A DNA stretch of 64,000 bases, from the NCBI GenBank assembly GCA_012646185.1, contig GCA_012646185.1_4706.1, one strand, 5' to 3'. This stretch comes from a phage. The notes beneath the pieces were generated by a model that was given only the letters and a program-made list of their open reading frames with translations, did not search any database and was not told where the DNA came from. The number at the start of each line of letters is the position of its first letter. The stretch's first letter is position 1. Shown here in pieces: positions 41,412 through 53,285 of this stretch. A program made the translations under genes and the position numbers.

Positions 41412-44321
41412 ATGAACGATATAAATAAAGGGCGCGTCGCCCTCGAACGTCAAATGAGCAATAATGACGTTGCGAAGGCACTCATGAACAAATTTGTCGC
41501 TCCTGCTCCGCAGTCACGTCTTTATAATACACGTGATGCGGAAGGAGCGAACGGTCGTTTCGGGTTAGTTGTTCCCGACCAAATGACGATGAACACGGTT
41601 ACGCGTGCGACCGCGACAAACATCGAGGATAATAAAAACATCCTCGAGTTGTTCCCTGAACTTAAACGCGTGATGCAGATCTATGTTGCCGCGTTGACGA
41701 ACCCTAACGATCTTAAGACGGTCGAGATGTTTATCGACAGCGAAGATTTCCCCGGCAGAGTCGCAGAAATCGTTCAGCCGATGATCGATACCATCGACAC
41801 GCATTTTAAGAATATCTATAAAATAAAGACGCTTATCCCTCGTATCATCGAAGACGTCTTCTTTATCAAGGGCAGTTATAACTTCGTTGTTCTGCCAGAA
41901 AGCACGCTCGACCGCGCGATTAATGGTAACGGTCAACTGAAACTTGAAGAATACGGATTTAAAGACAACCATTTTGCAAGTTGGGGGCTTCTAGGTAACG
42001 ACAGTCGCAAACGCCACGAAAATCAATTACCCGCGACGGTTTCGATGGAAGATTATTTCTCGGGTGTTAATGAAACCATACCGTACGATCCTGTTGTTCG
42101 CATAGACAGCATTAAGTTTACCAATACCCTGCTTCGCGATAAGGACGGTAAATTCATTGAAGCGAAGATCGATATTCCGGATATGGTTACGGTTGTCGAT
42201 AACCCAGACATCCTCCGCATGCCCATTCTGCATCAACGTCGAGCAGCGACAGCAGTGCAGCGTGCGTTACGCGCAAACACGTTAGGAGGTAGTGGTTTGG
42301 TAACGCTGTCAGGCGATCCGACCCTAACCGCTAACCGACGCGAGCTAACGCAAGAACAGGTTAACGAGATCTGGAATAAGCTCAACATCCAACGTCACAC
42401 TAAGGTATCTCCCGTTTACGCGTTGGCGACTCCAGATACGCTTGATCGTCAAAGCGTCGGTCATCCTGGTGTGATGCACGTACCACCTGAGGCATTAGAA
42501 CCCGTACATGCGCCCGGTGATCCTGAGAACCATATCGGGTATTTGGTTCAGTTGGATGAGTTTGGTTATCCGGTGCGTTTGGTTGAAGATGCTGCATATT
42601 ACAAGCAGTTGGAAGGTCGGTTGTCGAAGATCACTGCAGATATCGCAGGCACGTCAAGCAACGGCATGGCGAGCGAGATGATTGGTGCGGCCAAGAACAT
42701 GATCCAAGGTACGTCATGTAATCAGGTAGACATGTCGGCCTTCGTATCGTCGTACGAATCGCTGATGCAACGTTACATCGTTGAACGTATTGTCAACGGT
42801 TATCTTGGCAGTGCGGTGGAGATCGGTGCGACATCATCGTTTTACCTATCGATGCTTGCCCGTAGCCTCGCTCACAAGCAGACCCGTGTTTTGTTTATTC
42901 CTCGAGAGATGGTGACTTACATCGCCTATGAATACAACAAATACGGTATCGGTCGTTCGCTGCTTGAAAGTACGAAGATGATCTCGTCGCAACGAGCCAT
43001 GCTCATGGTTCAAGAACTAATGGCGAAAATCAAAAGTTCGTTGAACTATACGACGTTAAGCGTAATGCTTGAAGACACCGACAGAAACCCGGTCGATACC
43101 GTCGAACAAGCACTGCATAGTTTCGCTCGTGTCTACCAGTCTGGTTTCCCGTTGGGTGAAACTAACCCGATGGATATCATCAACGCGTACGAACGAAGCT
43201 CGATTCGATTGAAGGTTGAGGGGAATAACCCACGCTTCCCGAAATTGAATACAGACGTCAGCGTTGAGCAGCGTAACTATCAGTCTCCTGATAATGAGCT
43301 GATGGATCGTTACCGTCGTGACCATTTCATGGGCTTGGGTGTGTCTCCGGAGATTATCGATACTTCCTACCAATCTGAATTCGCAGCTTCTGTGATTACA
43401 GCTAACGCGATGCAAGAGAAACAGTTCACGGTTTGTCGTGAGGTGATCACGAATGGATTATCGGACCACATCAAGAAATATACGGCATACAGTCCCGTGT
43501 TGTTGACGTCGTTACGAAACACGGTTCGTGCGAACATGTCTAAGCTCTCCCAGGCACAATTGAAGCAGCTTTTTGGTAGCGATTTCGAAAACGGTGTTAT
43601 CCGTAACGTTAACGCCTATCAGGAGATTGACGACCAATCAGCAACAATGGATCTGGATTACACTAAACCAGAAGTCCAGGAAGTTATTGCCGATGCTTAT
43701 GTGTCCATGTTCTTAAACAGCCTGCGTGTGCGTTTACCAGATAGCAATGCTCGTCGCCTTGAAGATCAGGTACGTGAATATAATCAGTACAAGGAAGCGA
43801 TTACTGCGCAACTTGATGATTATTTAACGCCTGATTACGTCATGGGTCTGGGTGGGGTTGATGAAACAACGCTGCAGATGATCCGCGCATGCATTATTGG
43901 TACCGCGATGCGTACGTGGGCAAAAGAGAACAACTTCAATCAGGAGCTGGCTGATCTCTTCAGTCTTGACGATAAGAAGAATGCCGTGCAAGATTGGAAA
44001 CGTATGTCCATGGAACATATTGAAGTCATGGGTAAATGCATGGGTGATTTTGCATTGTATATTCAGAATCTGACGAAGAAGATTGAAGAGAAGATGGGAG
44101 CTCAAGCACAGGACGGCAGCGTTTCATCTGACGGTTCGTGGTCATCCGATTCAAGTAGCGATACCGGTTCTTCTGATGACTTCGGTGGCGGTGACGATTT
44201 CGGAGATACTGATTTCGATACCGAAACGATGGAGGAAACCTCAACAGAAGAAACAACCACATCTGAGGATACGACGACCGACACAACGTCAGAAGACGAT
44301 ACTTCAGGTGGCGTTGTCTAA
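41412..44321 (+). CDS. large structural-module protein with acidic Ser/Thr/Asp-rich C-terminal tail (969 aa)
   Basis: ATG with AAGGAG SD; function not assignable (portal is one possibility, unsupported). Confidence 0.65.
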   Translation: MNDINKGRVALERQMSNNDVAKALMNKFVAPAPQSRLYNTRDAEGANGRFGLVVPDQMTMNTVTRATATNIEDNKNILELFPELKRVMQIYVAALTNPNDLKTVEMFIDSEDFPGRVAEIVQPMIDTIDTHFKNIYKIKTLIPRIIEDVFFIKGSYNFVVLPESTLDRAINGNGQLKLEEYGFKDNHFASWGLLGNDSRKRHENQLPATVSMEDYFSGVNETIPYDPVVRIDSIKFTNTLLRDKDGKFIEAKIDIPDMVTVVDNPDILRMPILHQRRAATAVQRALRANTLGGSGLVTLSGDPTLTANRRELTQEQVNEIWNKLNIQRHTKVSPVYALATPDTLDRQSVGHPGVMHVPPEALEPVHAPGDPENHIGYLVQLDEFGYPVRLVEDAAYYKQLEGRLSKITADIAGTSSNGMASEMIGAAKNMIQGTSCNQVDMSAFVSSYESLMQRYIVERIVNGYLGSAVEIGATSSFYLSMLARSLAHKQTRVLFIPREMVTYIAYEYNKYGIGRSLLESTKMISSQRAMLMVQELMAKIKSSLNYTTLSVMLEDTDRNPVDTVEQALHSFARVYQSGFPLGETNPMDIINAYERSSIRLKVEGNNPRFPKLNTDVSVEQRNYQSPDNELMDRYRRDHFMGLGVSPEIIDTSYQSEFAASVITANAMQEKQFTVCREVITNGLSDHIKKYTAYSPVLLTSLRNTVRANMSKLSQAQLKQLFGSDFENGVIRNVNAYQEIDDQSATMDLDYTKPEVQEVIADAYVSMFLNSLRVRLPDSNARRLEDQVREYNQYKEAITAQLDDYLTPDYVMGLGGVDETTLQMIRACIIGTAMRTWAKENNFNQELADLFSLDDKKNAVQDWKRMSMEHIEVMGKCMGDFALYIQNLTKKIEEKMGAQAQDGSVSSDGSWSSDSSSDTGSSDDFGGGDDFGDTDFDTETMEETSTEETTTSEDTTTDTTSEDDTSGGVV

Positions 44322-44731: not shown

Positions 44732-47269
44732 TTACTGCTCTTCACGTTCCAGCAGATACTCGGAAGCGGTAATACCGTTTACCGTACGTACTGCTTTCAG
44801 ACGAGTATCATCGCTCAGAATTACAGTAACAGATTGCAGACCTTTTACTTTGGTTTCGAAGGTCTTGAACACCTGATCCAGCATACGAGCAATGCTTGGG
44901 TTGGTTGCAGCAGATGCGTGAGTGTAACCGCTCTGGTTCAGCTTCAGAATCTTGGCGTTGGTCGGTACGCGAACAACAACATGCGGACGCATCGCGAACA
45001 CGCTGTGATTGAACCAGTAAGCATCGTTGCTATCTTCGTCGGTAACGATGTCTGGATTAACACGCATATCCTCGATAGCCGCATCCGCCAAACGACGTTC
45101 GATTTCGTCAGCATCCAGAGAACCATCTTTCTCCAGTTCTGCACGATACTCACTCATGGCAACCAGATGACGTTCACGATTCGCTGCGGATTTTTCGTGA
45201 GCGGCTTTCAGGTAGTCATGCATGTTGTACAGTTCTGCCATGGAAAGACGAATGTTCCACTGACCTTCGCCGTCACGATTGCAGTAGAGACACTTCAGCA
45301 TGTTGACCCAGGTATAGTAGCAATTGGAGAATTCATCTTCAATGAACTTCTGGTCCATTTTAAGATCGTGAATCAGCCAACCGGACAGTTCTCCGATATC
45401 ATCAACGAAGCTAGAGATGGTGGTTTCAGAGAAGTTCTTCGGTACGATACGTTTGATCAGCTTGTTAACGTCTTTGGTCATGCTATCATTCAGGAAATGC
45501 CAGATACGCAGAGGAATGACATCTCGATACTGTTGCATGATCTGACGATAAGCTTTGATATCGTCGCTACGACCTTTATCAATAGACAACGCATCCAGGA
45601 ATTCATGGATTGCATCCAGCTCTTTGTCGGTATAGGTTCCCAGATAGGAATTGACGGTGGCCAGGAATGCTAATGCGTCGTTTTGGTTGACGTCGGTGTT
45701 GGTCTGCTGAATGATCGCTACTGAAGCTTTGGTTTCAGCATCCTCAACGCTTGACGCTGCGATCGCGTCGGTGACGGTAAACAGTTTCATTTCGCGCTGC
45801 TCACCGACAACGATTGGCTCACGCTGAACCGGCTTGTTAAGACTAACACGAACAACTTCTGCTTGCGCGATACGATCCAGTTTTGCCATTTCCTGCTCTG
45901 CCATACGACGAGCGGTTGGATCTGATTCAAGTTCGATGTATTCCACTTCTTCCTCCGTGAGGGATGTAATGTCAACAATGGTTTCATGAAGAATTCCGTT
46001 TTCGTCGATACGTGCTCGACGAGCGAAGTGCCTGAAGTCATACAACGTCGGCCAACGACTATTAGGTGCAAAGTCTTTGGCTTTCAGACGCATCTGCATA
46101 AATTCTTCATGTTGAACAACACGACCGTAACGCTTAGCATCTTCGGTCGCATCAATTGGATTAACGGTCTTTGTTGCCGTAGCGGAACGAGCCGTACGAA
46201 CCGGTTCAGGTTGAACGGGTTTCTGCTGCCCAGCCTTAACATGCCATTCTGGCTCTTCGTACTGCTCAGCAAATTGCTCAGCGGCTGCAAAGATATCGTT
46301 GATACCACCAATATCTCCTTCAGGATTTGTCGAGTAAATCCGTGGTTGTGGTGCCTCGTAACGCGGCGCTGTAGCAGCAGGTGCGTCATCAACGATAGGA
46401 TCGTCATCACCAACATCATACAAACGGTTGAACGCACAATCCTTCGAATCAATGTACGATGGCGTTTGTGGTTGGACAACCGTCGGCCGAGGTTGTGTGC
46501 CGTATCCTGGTGTTGTTGGAGCCATACCACGCATAACTGCTGGGTTAGGTTGGTATTGTGGTTGCGGGTAGGTTCCACCATACATGGCGTACGCAGGCTG
46601 TTGCGGTTGACCATACCCGTTGCTAACCATCGCACTTGCTTGCGGACCACGATAAGTCATCCCCATCTGCATCACCTGCTGCTTCAAACCACGTGACTTC
46701 TGAGCGATTTGCGCTAGGCTTCCGCTTTTATTCAGCTGCGTGTACTTGTTCGCGGCTTCCGGGTTAATGCGTGATAATTCAATCGCGCGATAATATTCCG
46801 GGTACTGATTCGGTTCAAAGAGCCACGTTACAAGATGATACAGCGCAACTGTGCTCACAGCAGCAGAGACGATCTGGTCGTCGGACGCGTTCTGTGGCAT
46901 CGGGTTGATGTAAGAGAACACGTTCCAACAACAGTCTTCAACAAGCGATTCCATCATCATATCGTTATTGGTATAACGTGCGACGAACTCGGTTTGTATT
47001 TTGTCTTGCTGAGCGAAGTCTTTCAGGACATTAAAGATGGCTTGACGGATTTTGACGATCGTCGCTTCTTGGGTGATGAAGTTATAGTTCTGCTGATATG
47101 AGGGTTGTTGGTATTGTGGTGGTTGATAGGCGTTATTCGGGTATGCGCCGTACGGCGATTGCTGATACTGTTGCTGACGAACCCGTTCAGCCGCATAATT
47201 AACCGTGCTCGTATAGGGGTTTTCGCTATAGCCCATTTGTTGATACATGTTGTTACTGCCATTATACAT
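44732..47269 (-). CDS. large protein with Q/Y/P-rich low-complexity regions (845 aa)
   Basis: ATG with AAGGA SD; N-terminal and central Gln/Tyr/Pro-rich low-complexity segments. Confidence 0.65.
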   Translation of the reverse strand: MYNGSNNMYQQMGYSENPYTSTVNYAAERVRQQQYQQSPYGAYPNNAYQPPQYQQPSYQQNYNFITQEATIVKIRQAIFNVLKDFAQQDKIQTEFVARYTNNDMMMESLVEDCCWNVFSYINPMPQNASDDQIVSAAVSTVALYHLVTWLFEPNQYPEYYRAIELSRINPEAANKYTQLNKSGSLAQIAQKSRGLKQQVMQMGMTYRGPQASAMVSNGYGQPQQPAYAMYGGTYPQPQYQPNPAVMRGMAPTTPGYGTQPRPTVVQPQTPSYIDSKDCAFNRLYDVGDDDPIVDDAPAATAPRYEAPQPRIYSTNPEGDIGGINDIFAAAEQFAEQYEEPEWHVKAGQQKPVQPEPVRTARSATATKTVNPIDATEDAKRYGRVVQHEEFMQMRLKAKDFAPNSRWPTLYDFRHFARRARIDENGILHETIVDITSLTEEEVEYIELESDPTARRMAEQEMAKLDRIAQAEVVRVSLNKPVQREPIVVGEQREMKLFTVTDAIAASSVEDAETKASVAIIQQTNTDVNQNDALAFLATVNSYLGTYTDKELDAIHEFLDALSIDKGRSDDIKAYRQIMQQYRDVIPLRIWHFLNDSMTKDVNKLIKRIVPKNFSETTISSFVDDIGELSGWLIHDLKMDQKFIEDEFSNCYYTWVNMLKCLYCNRDGEGQWNIRLSMAELYNMHDYLKAAHEKSAANRERHLVAMSEYRAELEKDGSLDADEIERRLADAAIEDMRVNPDIVTDEDSNDAYWFNHSVFAMRPHVVVRVPTNAKILKLNQSGYTHASAATNPSIARMLDQVFKTFETKVKGLQSVTVILSDDTRLKAVRTVNGITASEYLLEREEQ

Positions 47270-47303: not shown

Positions 47304-49100
47304 TCAATCGATTATGTCGTGATCGTTAATTTCTACAATTTCTTCATCGAATCGACCGACGTCTTTCTTCAAGCCTGCATTGGTTGCTGCAACGTCATTT
47401 GCAATTTGTGGGGTAATGATTAACCGACCGCGCTCATCGATAGGTGCGTACATACTGAACTTCTGACGTCCGGTTGGTTCGGAGTGTGGAAGATTCAGAT
47501 AGCTTGCACAGAACGGGATGGAACCACTAACCAAACGACTCTCGTCAGCCAATGCAGCACCGCCTGCGTTTTGGCTCTGGAGAACAACATGCGTGCTCAC
47601 TTTGAACAGCATGCAATCACCAGGTGACTGAATCGATGTTGCCACTTTCTCACGTTTATCACGATTGCTCTGGATATTGAGAATCGCTTCCGTTGCAACT
47701 TGATTTCGCAACGCCTTCTGTACATCGCGATTGGTCATCTCTTTACGGTTGTTCTGTCGTTTACCACGTTCTGTGGTTTTAAGATGGAACCCCAGTTTAA
47801 AGATGCTCTTACGCACATCCTCCATGACATATTCCAACACCATCAATTCCTTACCGAACATCGTCGTGGTGTCAACACGACTCATTTCGATAGTGACATT
47901 GTCAATCAGATACGCCATAAATTCATAGAAGTCGTCGCAAGGAATATTTTCCTGTTTGAACTTCTTCTGCTGAATTTCGTCAACGTAAAGATCGAGACTG
48001 TCGATGTGGTGGTTTACATCACGCAACAAACGCGCATCCGCATTGTTGTTATTAAAGATAATCAAACCGAGTAATGTACGCCAATGGTCTGGCGCATTCG
48101 CGAACTCTTCAACCGGATAGTCTTCCGGAAAACGATCGTAATAACGGTCGATGAGATACAAGAATGCACCGACAAGGCCAAGAACAATACGTTCCGTGCC
48201 TCCACGTCTTACAGCAATTTGAATATCAGGATGTTTGTAACGTACAGCGCTAGCGCTACGGCTTTTACCGCTTTTGCTGATACTAAAGCCTTTAGGAATA
48301 ACCCCCATGGTGCGATAGATTACCCATTGGTCACGCGGAAAATCACGTTCAGCAAGGTTCCGTCCGGTTACGGCTTCGACACCTGCAAAACGTCGGAAAC
48401 ACTCACCCACCCCGTACTTCGCAAAGAGATAGTGACCCAGTGTGGTTACGCTGGTGTGGTTGATGTTGTCACCGTTCACTTTACTTTGTTTAGTAAGATG
48501 ATAGATTTGCGACCAGGGTAATGACAGGTAATGACGATAATCGATACCGGTCGGTGTATCGTTGCTCAGGAACTGATACGGTGTACGTTTAACCGTGATT
48601 TTGTCACGCGGAAGCATGATGAACGCCATGTCTTTCGTGTAACTGATTACGGGGTCAGCGAGTACCGCACTGAGAATGAAGTTCGCACCACGTAGACGCA
48701 TTTTACCACCCTGACCTACCGCGGGTAATAGGAGAGGATGTCGGATAATGCAGTAGTCCTTTCCGGGTTCACGACGGTCACCTGATTCCATCGCGCCGTA
48801 CCAGCGGAATTCTAGCATCACCATAAACACATCGGAAGGCGCAAGGTCGAAGGTCAGCTTACCGCTATCCTTCCCTTTGGTTTTCTTTCCTCCGCTTAAG
48901 TAGTGGAACTGTTCGCGGGCCATACAGCGACGCAGGCCATGATACACCAGATCCTTAGGTAAACTATCTTTGCTGTTCCGCCAAAGACGATCAACATAGG
49001 ACTCAACATCTTGCATCTTATCGACGACGATGTTGCGTGCTATCTTCTCGTTCATCTTCGGTGCAAGCTCAGCGACAGCTTTGCAGAATCTAGGATCCAT
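47304..49100 (-). CDS. hypothetical protein (598 aa)
   Basis: ATG with AAGGAG SD (track start 49103 is GTG). Confidence 0.6.
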   Translation of the reverse strand: MDPRFCKAVAELAPKMNEKIARNIVVDKMQDVESYVDRLWRNSKDSLPKDLVYHGLRRCMAREQFHYLSGGKKTKGKDSGKLTFDLAPSDVFMVMLEFRWYGAMESGDRREPGKDYCIIRHPLLLPAVGQGGKMRLRGANFILSAVLADPVISYTKDMAFIMLPRDKITVKRTPYQFLSNDTPTGIDYRHYLSLPWSQIYHLTKQSKVNGDNINHTSVTTLGHYLFAKYGVGECFRRFAGVEAVTGRNLAERDFPRDQWVIYRTMGVIPKGFSISKSGKSRSASAVRYKHPDIQIAVRRGGTERIVLGLVGAFLYLIDRYYDRFPEDYPVEEFANAPDHWRTLLGLIIFNNNNADARLLRDVNHHIDSLDLYVDEIQQKKFKQENIPCDDFYEFMAYLIDNVTIEMSRVDTTTMFGKELMVLEYVMEDVRKSIFKLGFHLKTTERGKRQNNRKEMTNRDVQKALRNQVATEAILNIQSNRDKREKVATSIQSPGDCMLFKVSTHVVLQSQNAGGAALADESRLVSGSIPFCASYLNLPHSEPTGRQKFSMYAPIDERGRLIITPQIANDVAATNAGLKKDVGRFDEEIVEINDHDIID

Positions 49101-49139
49101 CACACACTCCTTTCAGAAAGTTGCTTAAGCAGATTAAAG

Positions 49140-50576
49140 TTACTTTTTCGATGACGCCTTTTCAAGAATCTTGAAAAAGGTCATACCTATACCGACAACG
49201 GCCGCGGTTATGCTCGCAGCGGCTTTCCAAACATCGACGTTACGTTGACGTCGCGCTTCTTCCGCTTCACGTTGTCTTTTTGCCTCTTCATCACGTCGAC
49301 GTATCTCAGCAGCAAACTCGTCGTGCTTACGTTTGGCTTCTTCGTCTCGACGACGAAGTTCAGCGACGAATTCTTCATGTTTGCGTTTAGCCTCGTCATC
49401 ACGACGTTTTAAATCAGCTTGATAATCTTCGTGTATTTGTTTACGTAGATCATCTTGACGCTTCATTTCGGCTTGGTGTTGTTCCATCCTACGTTTTTGT
49501 TCGTCTTTAAGCTGATCGAGTTCGGCTTTATGTTGTTCATCGCGCAGCTTTGCGTCGGCGCGATGCGCCTCATGCATCTGTGCGATAACTGCCTTGTGTT
49601 CATCCGCCATACGCCGCATTTCAGCCATCACCCCTTTAAGGGTTTCTTCTGATGCCTTACGTTCGTAGCTACGCTGGTCGAAATCATTTTTGTAGGCTTC
49701 TTTTTGGATGGGGTCGCGCCAATGCAATGCCGATTCACGTGTCGGAAAAACATTGTACTTCCACATCTCTTTTTCCAAATCTTCGACCGGTACGAAGATG
49801 GAGTCATTATTCCCGAAGGTAACCAACATACCTGGCGCGCCTGCTCCATTCGTTGGTTTTATTTCGAACGCTTTCCCCAGCACGTTAACCCATAAGCTAT
49901 ACGGATTATGAAAGTCGGGTGGCGTCCAATGGATAGTGAGTTGCGTTCCGAGAATCCGGAAACCCTCTGTTTTTCCCGTCAAGCTCCGCGCGCACGTTGC
50001 GATGTAGGGGTGATCAATCCCTTTCGTAACGTGGTCTGCGCTTTTGTATTCTCCTTTAACTTTTACGATTGCCACGTTGATTTGCGCGACATAAGCAGGT
50101 TGATTAAAGTTCAGCGTGTTGAGGTCAATTTGACATATTTCATCCAGCGTATCGTACCAGTCTTGCTGGTCTAATAGACGCGGCATTTTCTCAGCGTTAA
50201 CAATACGACGGATATGCGGTTTCCTTATCGCGTAACCTGTGCCGTTTTTAACACGGAGTATATCCCGACGTCTACCCGCGTAGACGAAGTTTCTGAATGC
50301 ACCATTCGCATTAGATACGTCATGGCTGTCAACTATTACAGGACTACGAAATTTTGAACGTCGTACGATCCTGAATGTATTGCCGTCCTCAACCCTACCA
50401 GGAATGTACTGGAACATATTGTCGGAGGTGATAACCAACACGGTATGGCCAGATTCATTAATACATGCCCATCCTAATTCCAGGTCATATAACGGTTCAG
50501 CATAACCGTCAATGCGATAAGCGTGCGTACCATCCCACGGTTCGAACGCGGTATCACATATTGGCATGGAGGGCAT
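49140..50576 (-). CDS. protein with charged coiled-coil repeats and C-terminal TM anchor (478 aa)
   Basis: ATG at 50576 with GGAGG SD (track start 50582 is TTG); tandem RRDEEAKRKH-EF-AE-RR repeats then hydrophobic AAASITAAVVGIGMTFF. Confidence 0.6.
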   Translation of the reverse strand: MPSMPICDTAFEPWDGTHAYRIDGYAEPLYDLELGWACINESGHTVLVITSDNMFQYIPGRVEDGNTFRIVRRSKFRSPVIVDSHDVSNANGAFRNFVYAGRRRDILRVKNGTGYAIRKPHIRRIVNAEKMPRLLDQQDWYDTLDEICQIDLNTLNFNQPAYVAQINVAIVKVKGEYKSADHVTKGIDHPYIATCARSLTGKTEGFRILGTQLTIHWTPPDFHNPYSLWVNVLGKAFEIKPTNGAGAPGMLVTFGNNDSIFVPVEDLEKEMWKYNVFPTRESALHWRDPIQKEAYKNDFDQRSYERKASEETLKGVMAEMRRMADEHKAVIAQMHEAHRADAKLRDEQHKAELDQLKDEQKRRMEQHQAEMKRQDDLRKQIHEDYQADLKRRDDEAKRKHEEFVAELRRRDEEAKRKHDEFAAEIRRRDEEAKRQREAEEARRQRNVDVWKAAASITAAVVGIGMTFFKILEKASSKK

Positions 50577-50725
50577 CGTCAACCTCCATCTGATTGAAAA
50601 CTATCACGCATAATGCATTTCCCTTTTCTTGTTCTTATCGAGCCGACAGCCGACGGTTTCAGCATCGTTCCTAGCGCGAGAACGACCTTACGTGTTGTCT
50701 ATGCCTTATTCATCGCAGGCGTCTG

Positions 50726-50814: not shown

Positions 50815-50913
50815 CTGACTTATGTATCACGGTGCCGGATGAATGTCCGGTGCAATGAAACCATCCGCAACGTTGTCGTCAAGAATATCGTCCAACGAAG
50901 CAGCTACGGTAGT

Positions 50914-53136
50914 TCAGTTAGTCTGAACCGGCAGCTTGATGTTTTCAGTGTAGACCTTACGCAGGTTCACAACGTTAATCAGACCCAGCAGCGGGCAGTT
51001 GTTAACGAAGCGGCAGCGCGGCTGAACCATGGTTTCTTTAGAAACCTGACCGTTACGGGTAACCTGAGCAACAGATACCAGTTCCGGTACATACAGGAAC
51101 ATACCGAAGGTCAGCGGATCCGGAGAACCCTGGATACCACGAGACAGGGTCACGAAGATCTTATCGCGCAGCATGACGTTCGGGTTATCTACAACCACGA
51201 AGTTGAAGCTTACACCAACGGTACGGAAATCGCCATCGGTCTGCAGGAACTGCGGGATGTAGTTGTCAGTTGCTACTACGCAACGCGGTTTCTCATCAGC
51301 GTTGGAAGACAGCAGCTGCAGAGCTGGCTGATAACCAGACTCGGAGTACATGCGGTATGCCATCTCACGAATCACGTTCATGATCGCAGCAGACACTTCA
51401 GCACGACGTTCTGCAGTGGTGGTACCCTGAACAGATTTCTCCAGGTCCAGATTGATTTCTTCGAACCACGGACGGATCAGGTAACGACCGAAACCTTCGA
51501 TCTGGATGTCGCCGAACTGACGGAAGCGAGAGGTCGCAACCGCTTTCAGTGCGTCTTTGTAGCTGAACAGTTTCTCAACCATCAGGTTGTCGAAACGTGC
51601 GTTAGCAGCTTGGATCAGAACGTCCAGGTCAGCAGCGTTTTCTTCCCAATCCAGCGGACGAGGAATGGAGAACGGAGCCAGCAGGCCGATTGCGTAACGT
51701 TCTTGCTTCATGTTGAAGTCAAGGTGCTTACCGCGCTCACGACGGTTGCTGTTGTTACGGCGGATACGCAGTTCGTAACCAACCAGTTTGAAGCTCAGGT
51801 CTTCAGCCAGCTGTTTGAACTCTTCGCCCTTACGCGGTTGTTCGATGTTGTCACGATCGACCAGACGATACAGTTCAGCGTTAGCGCCGTTAACACGCAG
51901 ACCGGCTTTCTCTACGTTGGAAGAACCGTAAACTTCGATTGCCAGCTGAGCAGCGGATTTCGAATCGATGATGTCCTGCAGCGCTTCAGCTCGTGCACCT
52001 TTAACGTCAACGGTGTTCTCATCAACGAAGATGGAGTGGGTGTCGAACGCCAGGGTCATTTTGCGGAAGTCGCCTTCCAGGGATTTCTGGAAACCGTTGG
52101 TGATCAGACCAGATACGTCGAACGGTACGTAAGAGGTTTTGCTGTGCTTGGTAGATTTGATTTCCACCAGGATTTTGGTCAGCGTGATCTGGGCGTCCAG
52201 CGCGTCGGTGTTGTCGCTGTAACCGTTAGCCAGGATGCTATCGTCTTCAGCGATACCGATCATGTCGATCAGTTTATCAACAGCCAGGTAAGACGTTTTA
52301 TAAGTTACGCCTTTAATTTCGATGTCGCGCGGAGCAACGATAGCTTTGTCAACGAAGTACTGTGCGTTAGCATCGTCAGCACGATAGATCGGATGCAGAT
52401 CGGTCACGTCGTTGGACAGAACGTCGTTGTACATGAACGCATCCAGCAGCGGACGACGTACCCAATCAGCCGGAGTACCGTCAGCGTTACGACGCAGGTG
52501 GTTGAACACCAGCGGACGACGGAAAGATACGTCGTAACCGATCTGGTTCGGAGCCAGAACGATGGTGTTGTACAGTTCGTTACCCATGCGGCTCAGACGA
52601 GAAGCCTTCACGTTGAACACAACGGAGTACGGCATCATGTCACGCAGTTCTTTCTGGTCGTAGGACAGCTGAACCAGTTCTTCAGATTCGCAACCGCAGG
52701 AATCAGCAGCCATCATGACGAAGTTAGAGCTGTCAACTTCACGGCCAGACGGAGTGGTGCTGATGTTCATGGAACGTGCTTGTTTAGCATATTCCACCGG
52801 GTTACCATGAGCCAGCATGATCAGTGCTGCTGCACGAGCCTGCTGTGCGTTCATGGTGAACAGCTGTTCTTCAATACGCTGCTTCTCTTCCGGAGTGGTG
52901 GTTTCGAAGCCCAGCATGGACAGAACCGGTTCTTCGGCTTTACGGATGTCGCTGCTGAAGCTCTTAACATCCATTTCGTTAACCAGTTTGTCCATGGATT
53001 TGAAATCAACCTTAGAAGCAGATTCCATAGACAGGAAGGTGTTCTCCAGACCTTTGTCTGCTGGTTTGCTACCATTAGCGGTCAGGAACTGGCGAGTGGC
53101 CGCGACCTGTTGGCTAAGAAGGGTTTTATCATTCAT
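50914..53136 (-). CDS. major virion structural protein (major capsid or tail sheath candidate, 740 aa)
   Basis: Strongest codon-usage bias in the window; ATG with AAGGA SD; length matches phiKZ-type major capsid proteins but also sheath proteins; no motif-level assignment possible. Confidence 0.55.
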   Translation of the reverse strand: MNDKTLLSQQVAATRQFLTANGSKPADKGLENTFLSMESASKVDFKSMDKLVNEMDVKSFSSDIRKAEEPVLSMLGFETTTPEEKQRIEEQLFTMNAQQARAAALIMLAHGNPVEYAKQARSMNISTTPSGREVDSSNFVMMAADSCGCESEELVQLSYDQKELRDMMPYSVVFNVKASRLSRMGNELYNTIVLAPNQIGYDVSFRRPLVFNHLRRNADGTPADWVRRPLLDAFMYNDVLSNDVTDLHPIYRADDANAQYFVDKAIVAPRDIEIKGVTYKTSYLAVDKLIDMIGIAEDDSILANGYSDNTDALDAQITLTKILVEIKSTKHSKTSYVPFDVSGLITNGFQKSLEGDFRKMTLAFDTHSIFVDENTVDVKGARAEALQDIIDSKSAAQLAIEVYGSSNVEKAGLRVNGANAELYRLVDRDNIEQPRKGEEFKQLAEDLSFKLVGYELRIRRNNSNRRERGKHLDFNMKQERYAIGLLAPFSIPRPLDWEENAADLDVLIQAANARFDNLMVEKLFSYKDALKAVATSRFRQFGDIQIEGFGRYLIRPWFEEINLDLEKSVQGTTTAERRAEVSAAIMNVIREMAYRMYSESGYQPALQLLSSNADEKPRCVVATDNYIPQFLQTDGDFRTVGVSFNFVVVDNPNVMLRDKIFVTLSRGIQGSPDPLTFGMFLYVPELVSVAQVTRNGQVSKETMVQPRCRFVNNCPLLGLINVVNLRKVYTENIKLPVQTN

Positions 53137-53285
53137 TGAAAGTATCCTTTACAGAATTAACTTATATAAGTCGGTCGATAGACCATAGCGTACACGCGTG
53201 CATGCGCCACTATAGTATCAGTAAACACTTACCGTTATTGAGGTCGTGATACAACACTAAAAATGCCGCATAACTTTTCCCTACG

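Follow-up and report, generated by a model that had tools for sequence, protein, structure and literature searches.

A putative JADA ortholog with glutamine-, tyrosine- and proline-rich low-complexity tracts in a Goslar-like jumbo phage

The window analysed here is a 64,000-nucleotide stretch of phage DNA (NCBI GenBank assembly GCA_012646185.1, contig GCA_012646185.1_4706.1), and the gene in question, at positions 44732..47269 on the minus strand, encodes an 845-residue protein with two low-complexity tracts rich in glutamine, tyrosine and proline (Q/Y/P). The gene is 97.5% identical in nucleotide and 98% in amino-acid sequence to Goslar_00038 (gp38, QBO63831.1), labelled 'hypothetical protein' in Escherichia phage vB_EcoM_Goslar, and we refer to its product as gp38. 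Sequence profiles, gene order and modelled fold identify gp38 as the putative Goslar-lineage ortholog of JADA (PhiKZ gp124, Pa36 gp316, 201phi2-1 gp204, RAY gp004), an essential, abundant protein conserved in nucleus-forming phages and the molecular pattern sensed by Avs5 immunity. We consider it probable that gp38 acts as a hub in which a dimeric C-domain carries flexible, weakly sticky Q/Y/P tethers that serve its early concentration at the early-infection (EPI) vesicle or the phage nucleus.

The open reading frame (ORF), whose extent and peptides had been quoted in a first-pass annotation made from the letters alone, is present in the ORF list of the window and in its translation. It starts with ATG, and an AAGGA Shine-Dalgarno-like motif lies 9 nt 5' of the start codon. 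The window as a whole is 97.5% identical in nucleotide sequence to Goslar, a nucleus-forming jumbo phage of the Chimalliviridae. This identity and the adjoining gene for a PhiKZ-type major capsid protein (PF25620, E 4.5e-216) place the genome that hosts the gene, as judged by sequence, in the Chimalliviridae.

Relationship of gp38 to JADA

JADA takes its name from the study 'Molecular basis for anti-jumbo phage immunity by AVAST Type 5' (10.1101/2025.07.08.663546), in which Pa36 gp316, the ortholog of PhiKZ gp124, is described as Chimalliviridae-specific and as invariably encoded directly downstream of, and in the same direction as, a gene for a non-virion RNA polymerase (nvRNAP) subunit. In the protein, a long disordered linker joins an N-domain (residues 1-170) to a C-domain (residues 270-721). 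Only the C-domain is resolved in the 2.1 Å cryo-EM structure 9RP3, as a closed ring-like homodimer of novel fold, and this domain alone sets off the Avs5 Sir2 NADase; Avs5 itself is found at the EPI vesicle (10.1101/2025.07.08.663546). PhiKZ_124 is essential, highly transcribed early and, 10 min into infection, one of the most abundant proteins. Antisense knock-down of PhiKZ124 strongly disturbs phage transcription at 30 min (Nature 2025). A June 2026 review gives the function of JADA as unknown. The homolog of JADA in Churi is detected at 15 min. PhiKZ gp124 is also said, in PMC11849849 with reference to Van den Bossche 2014, to bind host DnaX or FtsZ, which we take as a lead.

Searches with single sequences and shallow profiles reached few relatives of gp38. 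A word-index search with the full-length protein, a query saturated by low-complexity words, returned only four proteins (79-98% identity), and the same kind of search with a C-domain family profile returned only two FBKp24-like proteins. Among 50,697 phage records tblastn found Goslar alone, and a locus search with the Goslar-clade alignment found three near-identical IMG/VR loci. An exhaustive phmmer search of 1.8 billion representatives with residues 370-845 yielded one real distant relative, P0005 (39% identity), from an uncultured phage whose gene order at this place is identical to that of the gp38 locus; a further match, P0006, is a spurious repeat protein and was rejected. No PHROG matched gp38 in the PHROG scan, and the Pfam candidates Cas9_C_2 and DUF4186, both at 18 bits, were rejected as below their cut-offs (27 and 25, respectively). 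The 'gp38' of the PhiKZ EPI-vesicle preprint is PhiKZ gp38, a protein unrelated to Goslar gp38.

Four lines bear on the identity with JADA, namely profile-profile comparison, fold search, synteny and a published ortholog table. Comparison by hhalign of the Goslar clade with the clade of PhiKZ, 201phi2-1, PS119XW, LucasX, RP31 and RSF1 gave a probability of 98.4% (E 5.9e-15, 330 columns) and paired gp38 residues 399-829 with gp124 residues 366-708. Since the sequence of 9rp3_A agrees with PhiKZ gp124 over the stretches compared and has the same length, this is in effect a comparison of a Goslar-clade with a JADA-clade profile. The PhiKZ clade in turn matched FBKp24/Totoro (96.5%, E 9e-10), and the seed hidden Markov model (HMM) retrieved RAY-type gp4 (E 4e-10, Z = 1e6). 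The hhalign match to the Aeromonas/Vibrio clade is weak (17%, E 1.5e-3) and falls at the same motif; this clade was taken into the family because of its synteny and of fold matches in BFVD to proteins of Aeromonas D6 and Vibrio 2 TSL-2019. The pairwise identity of gp38 to the PhiKZ-type protein is ~13-17%.

The fold search was made with the second of two AlphaFold2 models, built without templates from 16 sequences that included the Goslar clade, eight PhiKZ-clade metagenomic proteins and two FBKp24-like proteins; the first model (6 sequences, mean pLDDT 41) was not used for it. Against the PDB, Foldseek returned 9rp3_A (E 5e-11) and 9rp3_B (E 2e-10) with probability 1.00, 13% identity and a target-normalised TM score of 0.50-0.51, and these were the sole significant matches (next E 1.1). 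Against BFVD there were 18 significant matches, all to uncharacterised jumbo-phage proteins, including those of Aeromonas D6 and Vibrio 2 TSL-2019. Both models show the order of N-domain, disordered linker and C-domain described for JADA.

Gene order agrees with this assignment. The gene directly upstream of gp38, on the same strand, encodes a 599-residue RNA polymerase beta-like protein whose stop codon lies 34 nt from the gp38 ATG. By tblastn it matched 218 jumbo-phage records, in many of which the annotation reads RNA polymerase beta subunit, and its ortholog in 201phi2-1, gp203, carries the annotation 'similar to phiKZ gp123'. An RNA polymerase beta-like gene followed by a same-strand 'hypothetical protein' of 650-870 residues was found in the window and in all of the 17 other loci compared, which come from Ralstonia RSF1 and RP31, PhiKZ-type phages, 201phi2-1, PS119XW, Klebsiella FBKp24 and YC1, the RAY-type Erwinia phage Bosolaphorus, Xanthomonas LucasX, Serratia Totoro, Vibrio phiKT1019 and C-ZP2022, Halocynthia phage JM-2012, Pantoea Survivor and Aeromonas ACP1. 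Independently, Goslar_00038 shares one column with PHIKZ124, 201phi2-1 gp204, a PhiPA3 protein and RAY gp004 in an ortholog table from the supplement to Prichard et al. 2023. Orthology to PHIKZ124 was therefore already tabulated in 2023, and the gene is the Goslar-clade member of a family that has since been named.

Composition, turnover and selection of the tracts

The Q/Y/P-rich regions that the first-pass annotation had noticed at the N terminus and in the centre of the protein lie at residues ~8-62 and ~206-272. We measured composition in sliding 40-residue windows against a background of 16,873 such windows taken from the remaining ~59 ORFs of the stretch, a crude gene set. The summed fraction of Q, Y and P peaks at 0.60 (residues 31-70) and 0.53 (residues 221-260), with a Shannon entropy of ~3.0 bits and 3-7% charged residues at the peaks; the background has a mean of 0.124, a standard deviation (SD) of 0.054 and a maximum of 0.35. 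Both tracts are thus extreme outliers, at ~8 SD, and their composition is not that of a normal protein of this proteome. The N-terminal low-complexity region (LCR1, residues 1-62) has 34% Q+N, 19% Y, 10% P and 3% ILVFW, a charged fraction of 0.06, and 12 tyrosines spaced 3-10, mostly 5, residues apart; the central one (LCR2, residues 206-272) has 19% P, 18% Q+N, 12% G and 12% Y, with a charged fraction of 0.04. Near-uncharged, rich in Q, N and Y and with evenly spaced tyrosines, the tracts bear out the earlier description of their composition as prion-like, at a length of 55-67 residues that is borderline against predictor thresholds (for example, a PLAAC core of at least 60 residues).

A collagen-like or otherwise fibrous repeat protein, the structural explanation against which the tracts were also to be held, was rejected: we found no G-X-Y or triplet periodicity in the tracts, where glycine makes up 5-12%, and Tandem Repeats Finder (minimum score 30) detected no DNA tandem repeat in the gp38 gene.

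Both AlphaFold2 models assign pLDDT values of 22-38 to residues 1-53 and ~202-374, which is consistent with disordered segments flanking folded parts. The low-pLDDT tracts separate a helical N-domain from a C-domain, in agreement with the ordered domains that had been placed between them. The second model has a mean pLDDT of 52, with 65-85 over most of residues 490-845 and less than 50 at residues 1-53 and 153-415. The linker that follows the helical domain is ~170 residues long (pLDDT <40) and contains, in its second part, one short predicted helix (residues 323-336). LCR2 is the start, the first third, of the disordered linker known from JADA; LCR1 is an extra N-terminal extension. The C-domain also holds an insertion of ~100 residues, gapped in all PhiKZ-, RAY-, RSF1-, LucasX- and FBKp24-clade sequences and predicted to form long helices (pLDDT ~80 for residues 690-737). 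The parts of the protein and the neighbouring genes are collected in Table 1.

Table 1. Parts of gp38 and surrounding genes, in positions of the window
Feature	Residues	Positions	Strand	Basis
Whole gene, Goslar gp38 ortholog, putative JADA family member	1-845	44732..47269	-	Goslar identity, Prichard 2023 table, hhalign, Foldseek
LCR1, Q/Y/N/P-rich N-terminal extension, predicted disordered	1-62	47084..47269	-	composition, pLDDT 25-38
All-helical N-terminal domain (predicted)	~63-205	46655..47083	-	helices, pLDDT 55-74 in both models
LCR2, P/Q/G/Y-rich, first part of inter-domain linker	206-272	46454..46654	-	pLDDT 22-29
Second part of linker, acidic, P-rich	273-374	46148..46453	-	charged fraction 0.27, net negative; pLDDT <35
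C-terminal domain, putative homolog of JADA C-domain	375-845	44735..46147	-	hhalign, Foldseek, omega 0.025
Goslar-clade-specific insertion (~100 residues) in C-domain	~665-765	44975..45277	-	alignment gaps in other clades
RNA polymerase beta-like subunit (nvRNAP, PhiKZ gp123 ortholog)	1-599	47304..49103	-	PHROG 2943 'polymerase', E 7e-120
Goslar gp40 (PhiKZ gp122 ortholog)	1-480	49140-50582	-	
Major capsid protein, PhiKZ-type		50914-53136	-	PF25620
766-residue ORF antisense to major capsid gene	1-766	50839-53139	+	
Portal, Goslar gp36		41412-44321	+	2026 virion structure preprint

Across 18 orthologs, low-entropy tracts occupy the same two positions with unrelated compositions. The Goslar clade has Q/Y/P and P/Q/G/Y tracts, the RAY-type protein of Bosolaphorus Q/M/P, PhiKZ G/M/P/Q, JM-2012 G/M/Q/S, LucasX an RGG-like G/Q/R/S/Y mixture and 201phi2-1 N/Q/S/G/T; RSF1 has R/D, FBKp24 R/D/G/Y and Totoro R/D/S/G, while Survivor and ACP1 carry an N/Q/G-rich tract at the N terminus and YC1 and C-ZP2022 a Q-rich one in the centre. 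Across the family it is disorder and low complexity that persist, not Q/Y/P, and the retention of disorder while the chemistry changes favours a role as tether or spacer. No sequence counterparts of the Q/Y/P tracts were detected outside the Goslar clade by word-index, tblastn and phmmer searches. Turnover is also visible at shorter range: two close relatives (P0003 and P0004) carry a nine-residue insertion, QQPPYQPQQ, in LCR1, and at the N terminus of the distant relative P0005 an N/Q/G-rich stretch of ~25 residues replaces the Y-rich tract. The sole length difference from Goslar gp38 itself is a seven-residue deletion (AQVKPEP) at residue 356 (window ~46200-46220). It falls in a short direct repeat, PEP…KPEP, of the acidic linker segment and illustrates how indels turn over in disordered sequence.

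Selection was estimated from the window gene and an 88%-identical IMG/VR relative (L018:3001-5589), as synonymous divergence (dS) and the ratio of nonsynonymous to synonymous divergence (omega). Omega is 0.11 in LCR1, 0.08 in LCR2, 0.14 in the N-domain and 0.025 in the C-domain, and the tracts encode Q, Y, P and G by a mixture of synonymous codons. Within the Goslar clade both tracts are under purifying selection, of a strength similar to that on the folded N-domain. The low omega, a nearly saturated dS, the mixed codons and the lack of a tandem repeat argue together against recent slippage and against neutrality; combined with the change of composition between clades, the low omega within the clade points to maintenance by selection in the short term and turnover in the longer term.

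In the same comparison dS falls about 10-fold along the gene, from 1.41 (residues 1-62) through 1.24 (63-205), 0.99 (206-272) and 0.37 (273-374) to 0.11 (375-845), with a breakpoint at ~46150-46450, inside the disordered linker. This drop indicates that the N-terminal module (LCR1, helical domain and LCR2) has a history different from that of the C-domain, and the sequence pattern marks the gene (44735-47269) as a recombination mosaic with its junction in the linker.

In the literature searched we found no description of the Q/Y/P composition, of the extra N-terminal extension, of clade-specific low-complexity tracts across the family or of selection on the tracts. The JADA preprint (10.1101/2025.07.08.663546) has no mention of Goslar, low complexity or IDR.

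Proposed role and alternative explanations

In the mechanism that we propose, the C-domain would dimerise into a closed ring, as is known for Pa36 gp316, and the two helical N-domains of each dimer would be held on disordered linkers of ~170 residues. Uncharged Q/Y/P-rich sequence makes up, in the Goslar lineage, the 67 residues with which this linker begins and the added 62-residue N-terminal extension. These tracts would serve as flexible tethers that let the N-domains sweep a large volume and contact partners, and their regularly spaced tyrosines and glutamines may make weak, multivalent and reversible contacts. Such contacts would help to concentrate an abundant protein at the EPI vesicle or nascent phage nucleus where, to judge from PhiKZ-type data, JADA is needed for the phage transcription programme. 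gp38 would be made early, probably from one transcript with the adjacent nvRNAP subunit. The proposal draws on the present analysis for identity, synteny, fold match, predicted disorder, outlier composition, purifying selection and the family-wide occurrence of low-complexity tracts, and on the PhiKZ-type literature for early abundance, essentiality, the ring dimer, triggering of Avs5 by the C-domain and the transcription phenotype of the knock-down. A tether role accounts for the conservation of disorder alongside a varying composition. On its own it leaves the low omega and the regular spacing of the tyrosines unaccounted for, and it is for these that we propose weak sticker-and-spacer contacts.

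Several observations weigh against this proposal, at the level both of the identity of gp38 and of the function of its tracts. With HMMER and the Goslar-clade profile alone, 9rp3_A was the sole PDB match, at an E value of 1.2, and a search of the PDB by HMMER with the single gp38 sequence gave no match; homology therefore rests on profile-profile and fold comparison. The fold model is itself moderate (the mean pLDDT of 52 given above), and its alignment included PhiKZ-clade sequences. Restricted to the N-domain, hhalign comparison with JADA's N-terminal domain detected no homology (probability 0.2%); full-length MAFFT and HMM alignments set the two domains opposite each other, which is a matter of position and not evidence of homology. 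A pure entropic tether has no obvious need for an omega of ~0.1 or for regular tyrosine spacing, and stickiness specific to Q and Y is hard to square with the R/D-rich linkers of RSF1, FBKp24 and Totoro. Timing, dimerisation and essentiality are known from PhiKZ-type phages, not from Goslar gp38. Lastly, gp38 is present in preparations of Goslar virions, which the picture of an early, non-virion protein does not predict unless it is carry-over.

The virion data come from liquid chromatography-mass spectrometry (MS) of CsCl-purified Goslar particles (Table S4, 10.64898/2026.04.21.720040), in which gp38 is represented by 26 peptides (28% coverage) and estimated at 17-39 copies per virion (~25 copy-equivalents). 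Read at face value, they would make gp38 a packaged protein, a few tens of copies of which are ejected with the DNA, the tracts keeping the protein extended so that it can pass through the tail or insert at the EPI vesicle. The copy estimate exceeds those of the portal (~16) and of the virion RNA polymerase subunits (7-21), detection at 10-15 min in PhiKZ-type phages would also suit an injected protein, and the gene sits among head, portal and other virion genes. The same preparation, however, holds the non-virion proteins chimallin (~126), PhuZ (~170), ChmC (~77) and thymidylate synthase (~20) at equal or higher levels, so that carry-over of an abundant protein explains the signal. In addition, gp38 is neither among the 28 modelled structural proteins nor among the unmodelled virion proteins that the study highlights, 201phi2-1 gp204 has no virion annotation though its neighbours have one, the Churi homolog is listed as non-structural, and PhiKZ_124 is highly transcribed early, with a phenotype when its new synthesis is knocked down by antisense. 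No tract peptides were found in the part of the virion MS supplement that was covered, a result made uninformative by the 30-42-residue length of their tryptic products. We regard packaging as very unlikely.

We give even less credence to the idea that the tracts are functionless, filler put by slippage during replication or by mutational bias into a linker of irrelevant sequence, and tolerated there. Compositions that differ wholly between clades, indels that build up in the tracts among close relatives and the lack of detectable counterparts outside the Goslar clade are what such drift would leave behind; it is at odds with an omega of 0.08-0.11 at a dS of 1.0-1.4, with mixed codons and no DNA tandem repeat, and with a low-complexity segment kept at the same position in 18 of 18 orthologs from very divergent phages. 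The opposite extreme is a condensate scaffold, in which the tracts are prion-like domains, four per ring dimer, that would drive phase separation of gp38 into a liquid or gel hub early in infection, the tracts of other clades doing likewise by other chemistries. In FUS/hnRNPA1-type domains even tyrosine spacing is a sticker-and-spacer pattern that favours liquid demixing, and LCR1, with its charged fraction of 0.06, 34% Q+N, 19% Y and tyrosines ~5 residues apart, has the corresponding features. Purifying selection on the tracts, the multivalency that a dimeric C-domain would provide (by analogy with Pa36 JADA), the high early abundance of JADA in PhiKZ and the fact that each clade's tract chemistry belongs to a class known from phase-separating proteins all speak for it, as does ChmC of the same phages, which condenses through an N/G-rich tail (PMC11077065). 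Against this stand recombinant Pa36 JADA, which after size-exclusion purification yielded a 2.1 Å single-particle structure with no droplets or aggregation reported, the length of the tracts (55-67 residues, at the lower limit for classical prion-like domains) and P0005, whose ~25-residue stretch is not Y-rich. Condensate formation by gp38 is plausible by analogy, and as the principal role of the tracts we hold it to be unlikely. The broader version, in which JADA throughout the family is a multivalent hub whose ring dimer and low-complexity arms build an early 'factory', condensate-like or in the form of a mesh, at the EPI vesicle or nascent nucleus, is speculative and less likely still. If true, such a factory may concentrate, for example, nvRNAP, transcripts or import and export factors, and its lineage flavours (Q/Y in Goslar, RGG-like in LucasX, R/D in RSF1, FBKp24 and Totoro, N/Q in Aeromonas phages, G/M/Q in PhiKZ and JM-2012) could permit lineage-specific demixing in co-infection; it would give an essential protein a function and provide a bacterial-virus parallel to eukaryotic viral factories.

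A hub with flexible, weakly sticky tethers thus remains the explanation that we favour. gp38 is not a new kind of system; what the analysis offers is a useful annotation and a testable hypothesis on an essential protein. It provides a JADA representative from a phage of Escherichia coli, a genetically tractable host, and knock-down by dCas13d has already been used for Goslar. The survey of tracts across clades turns the 'disordered linker' into a testable question, tether versus sticky multivalent arm, which gp38, given the tyrosine patterning of its tracts, is well suited to address. Should the tracts be only tethers, the gain is an ordinary one of annotation, from hypothetical protein to JADA ortholog.

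Locus context and comparison with known systems

Two genes upstream of gp38 lies the gene for Goslar gp40, a protein with tandem charged repeats of the RRRDEEAKRKH(E/D)EF type followed by a hydrophobic segment of ~20 residues at the extreme C terminus (VWKAAASITAAVVGIGMTFFKIL). In 11 of 13 gp40 orthologs examined the most hydrophobic 19-mer is likewise at the very C terminus, as in tail-anchored membrane proteins. Knock-down of PhiKZ122, like that of PhiKZ124, disturbs phage transcription (Nature 2025), and gp122, gp123 and gp124 may form a functional trio at the EPI vesicle. A scan for promoter and terminator consensus sequences around the gp38 gene found sites no more frequent than in shuffled sequence, with a consensus that does not cover the promoters of phage RNA polymerases.

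On the other side of gp38 the last ~60 residues of the portal form a strongly acidic, S/T/D/E/G-rich low-complexity tail (…SVSSDGSWSSDSSSDTGSSDDFGGGDDFGDTDFDTETMEETSTEETTTSEDTTTDTTSEDDTSGG), which lies beyond the crown domain because the virion paper puts the crown at residues 778-923. Antisense to the major capsid gene runs a 766-residue ORF that is almost certainly a shadow ORF, since it is the minus-strand product that matches PF25620.

Among known systems gp38 most resembles JADA of the PhiKZ type (PhiKZ gp124, Pa36 gp316). Both belong to chimalliviruses and are encoded directly downstream of an nvRNAP subunit gene in the same direction, and both combine an N-domain, a long disordered linker and a large C-domain that profile (98.4%) and fold comparison indicate to be homologous. 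They differ in the 62-residue Q/Y-rich extension at the N terminus of gp38, in the chemistry of the linker (Q/Y/P/G in gp38, G/M/P/Q in PhiKZ), in the insertion of ~100 residues in the gp38 C-domain and in the N-domain, where homology was not detected by profile comparison. Dimerisation, Avs5 activation, early timing and essentiality are known only for the PhiKZ-type proteins.

ChmC (Goslar gp176, PhiPA3 gp61), from the same phage family, likewise joins a folded domain to a low-complexity disordered region. It is a phage-nucleus-associated RNA-binding protein with an oligomeric folded domain, and its N/G-rich tail forms condensates with RNA in vitro (PMC11077065). ChmC thereby sets a precedent among chimalliviruses for low-complexity sequence with a function, and the first-pass view that such sequence is unusual in a phage is for this reason only partly right. 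The fold of ChmC, a Whirly tetramer, is unrelated to that of gp38, and its tract is a C-terminal N/G-rich tail of 50-70 residues, not Q/Y/P; RNA binding has been demonstrated for ChmC, whereas gp38 is compared with it by composition and architecture.

The prion-like domains of FUS and hnRNPA1 are uncharged and rich in Q, N, G, S and P, have evenly spaced tyrosines and few aliphatic residues, and are joined to folded domains that oligomerise or bind nucleic acid. The gp38 tracts resemble them in composition only, with no evolutionary relation, and are much shorter (55-67 against 150-200 residues), with more proline and less glycine and serine. Finally, the tracts of the gp38 family share with generic flexible linkers a conserved position, a composition that turns over between clades and a tolerance of indels; they depart from such linkers in that purifying selection acts on the Goslar-clade tracts with the same strength as on the N-domain, and in that LCR1 is terminal and not a linker at all.

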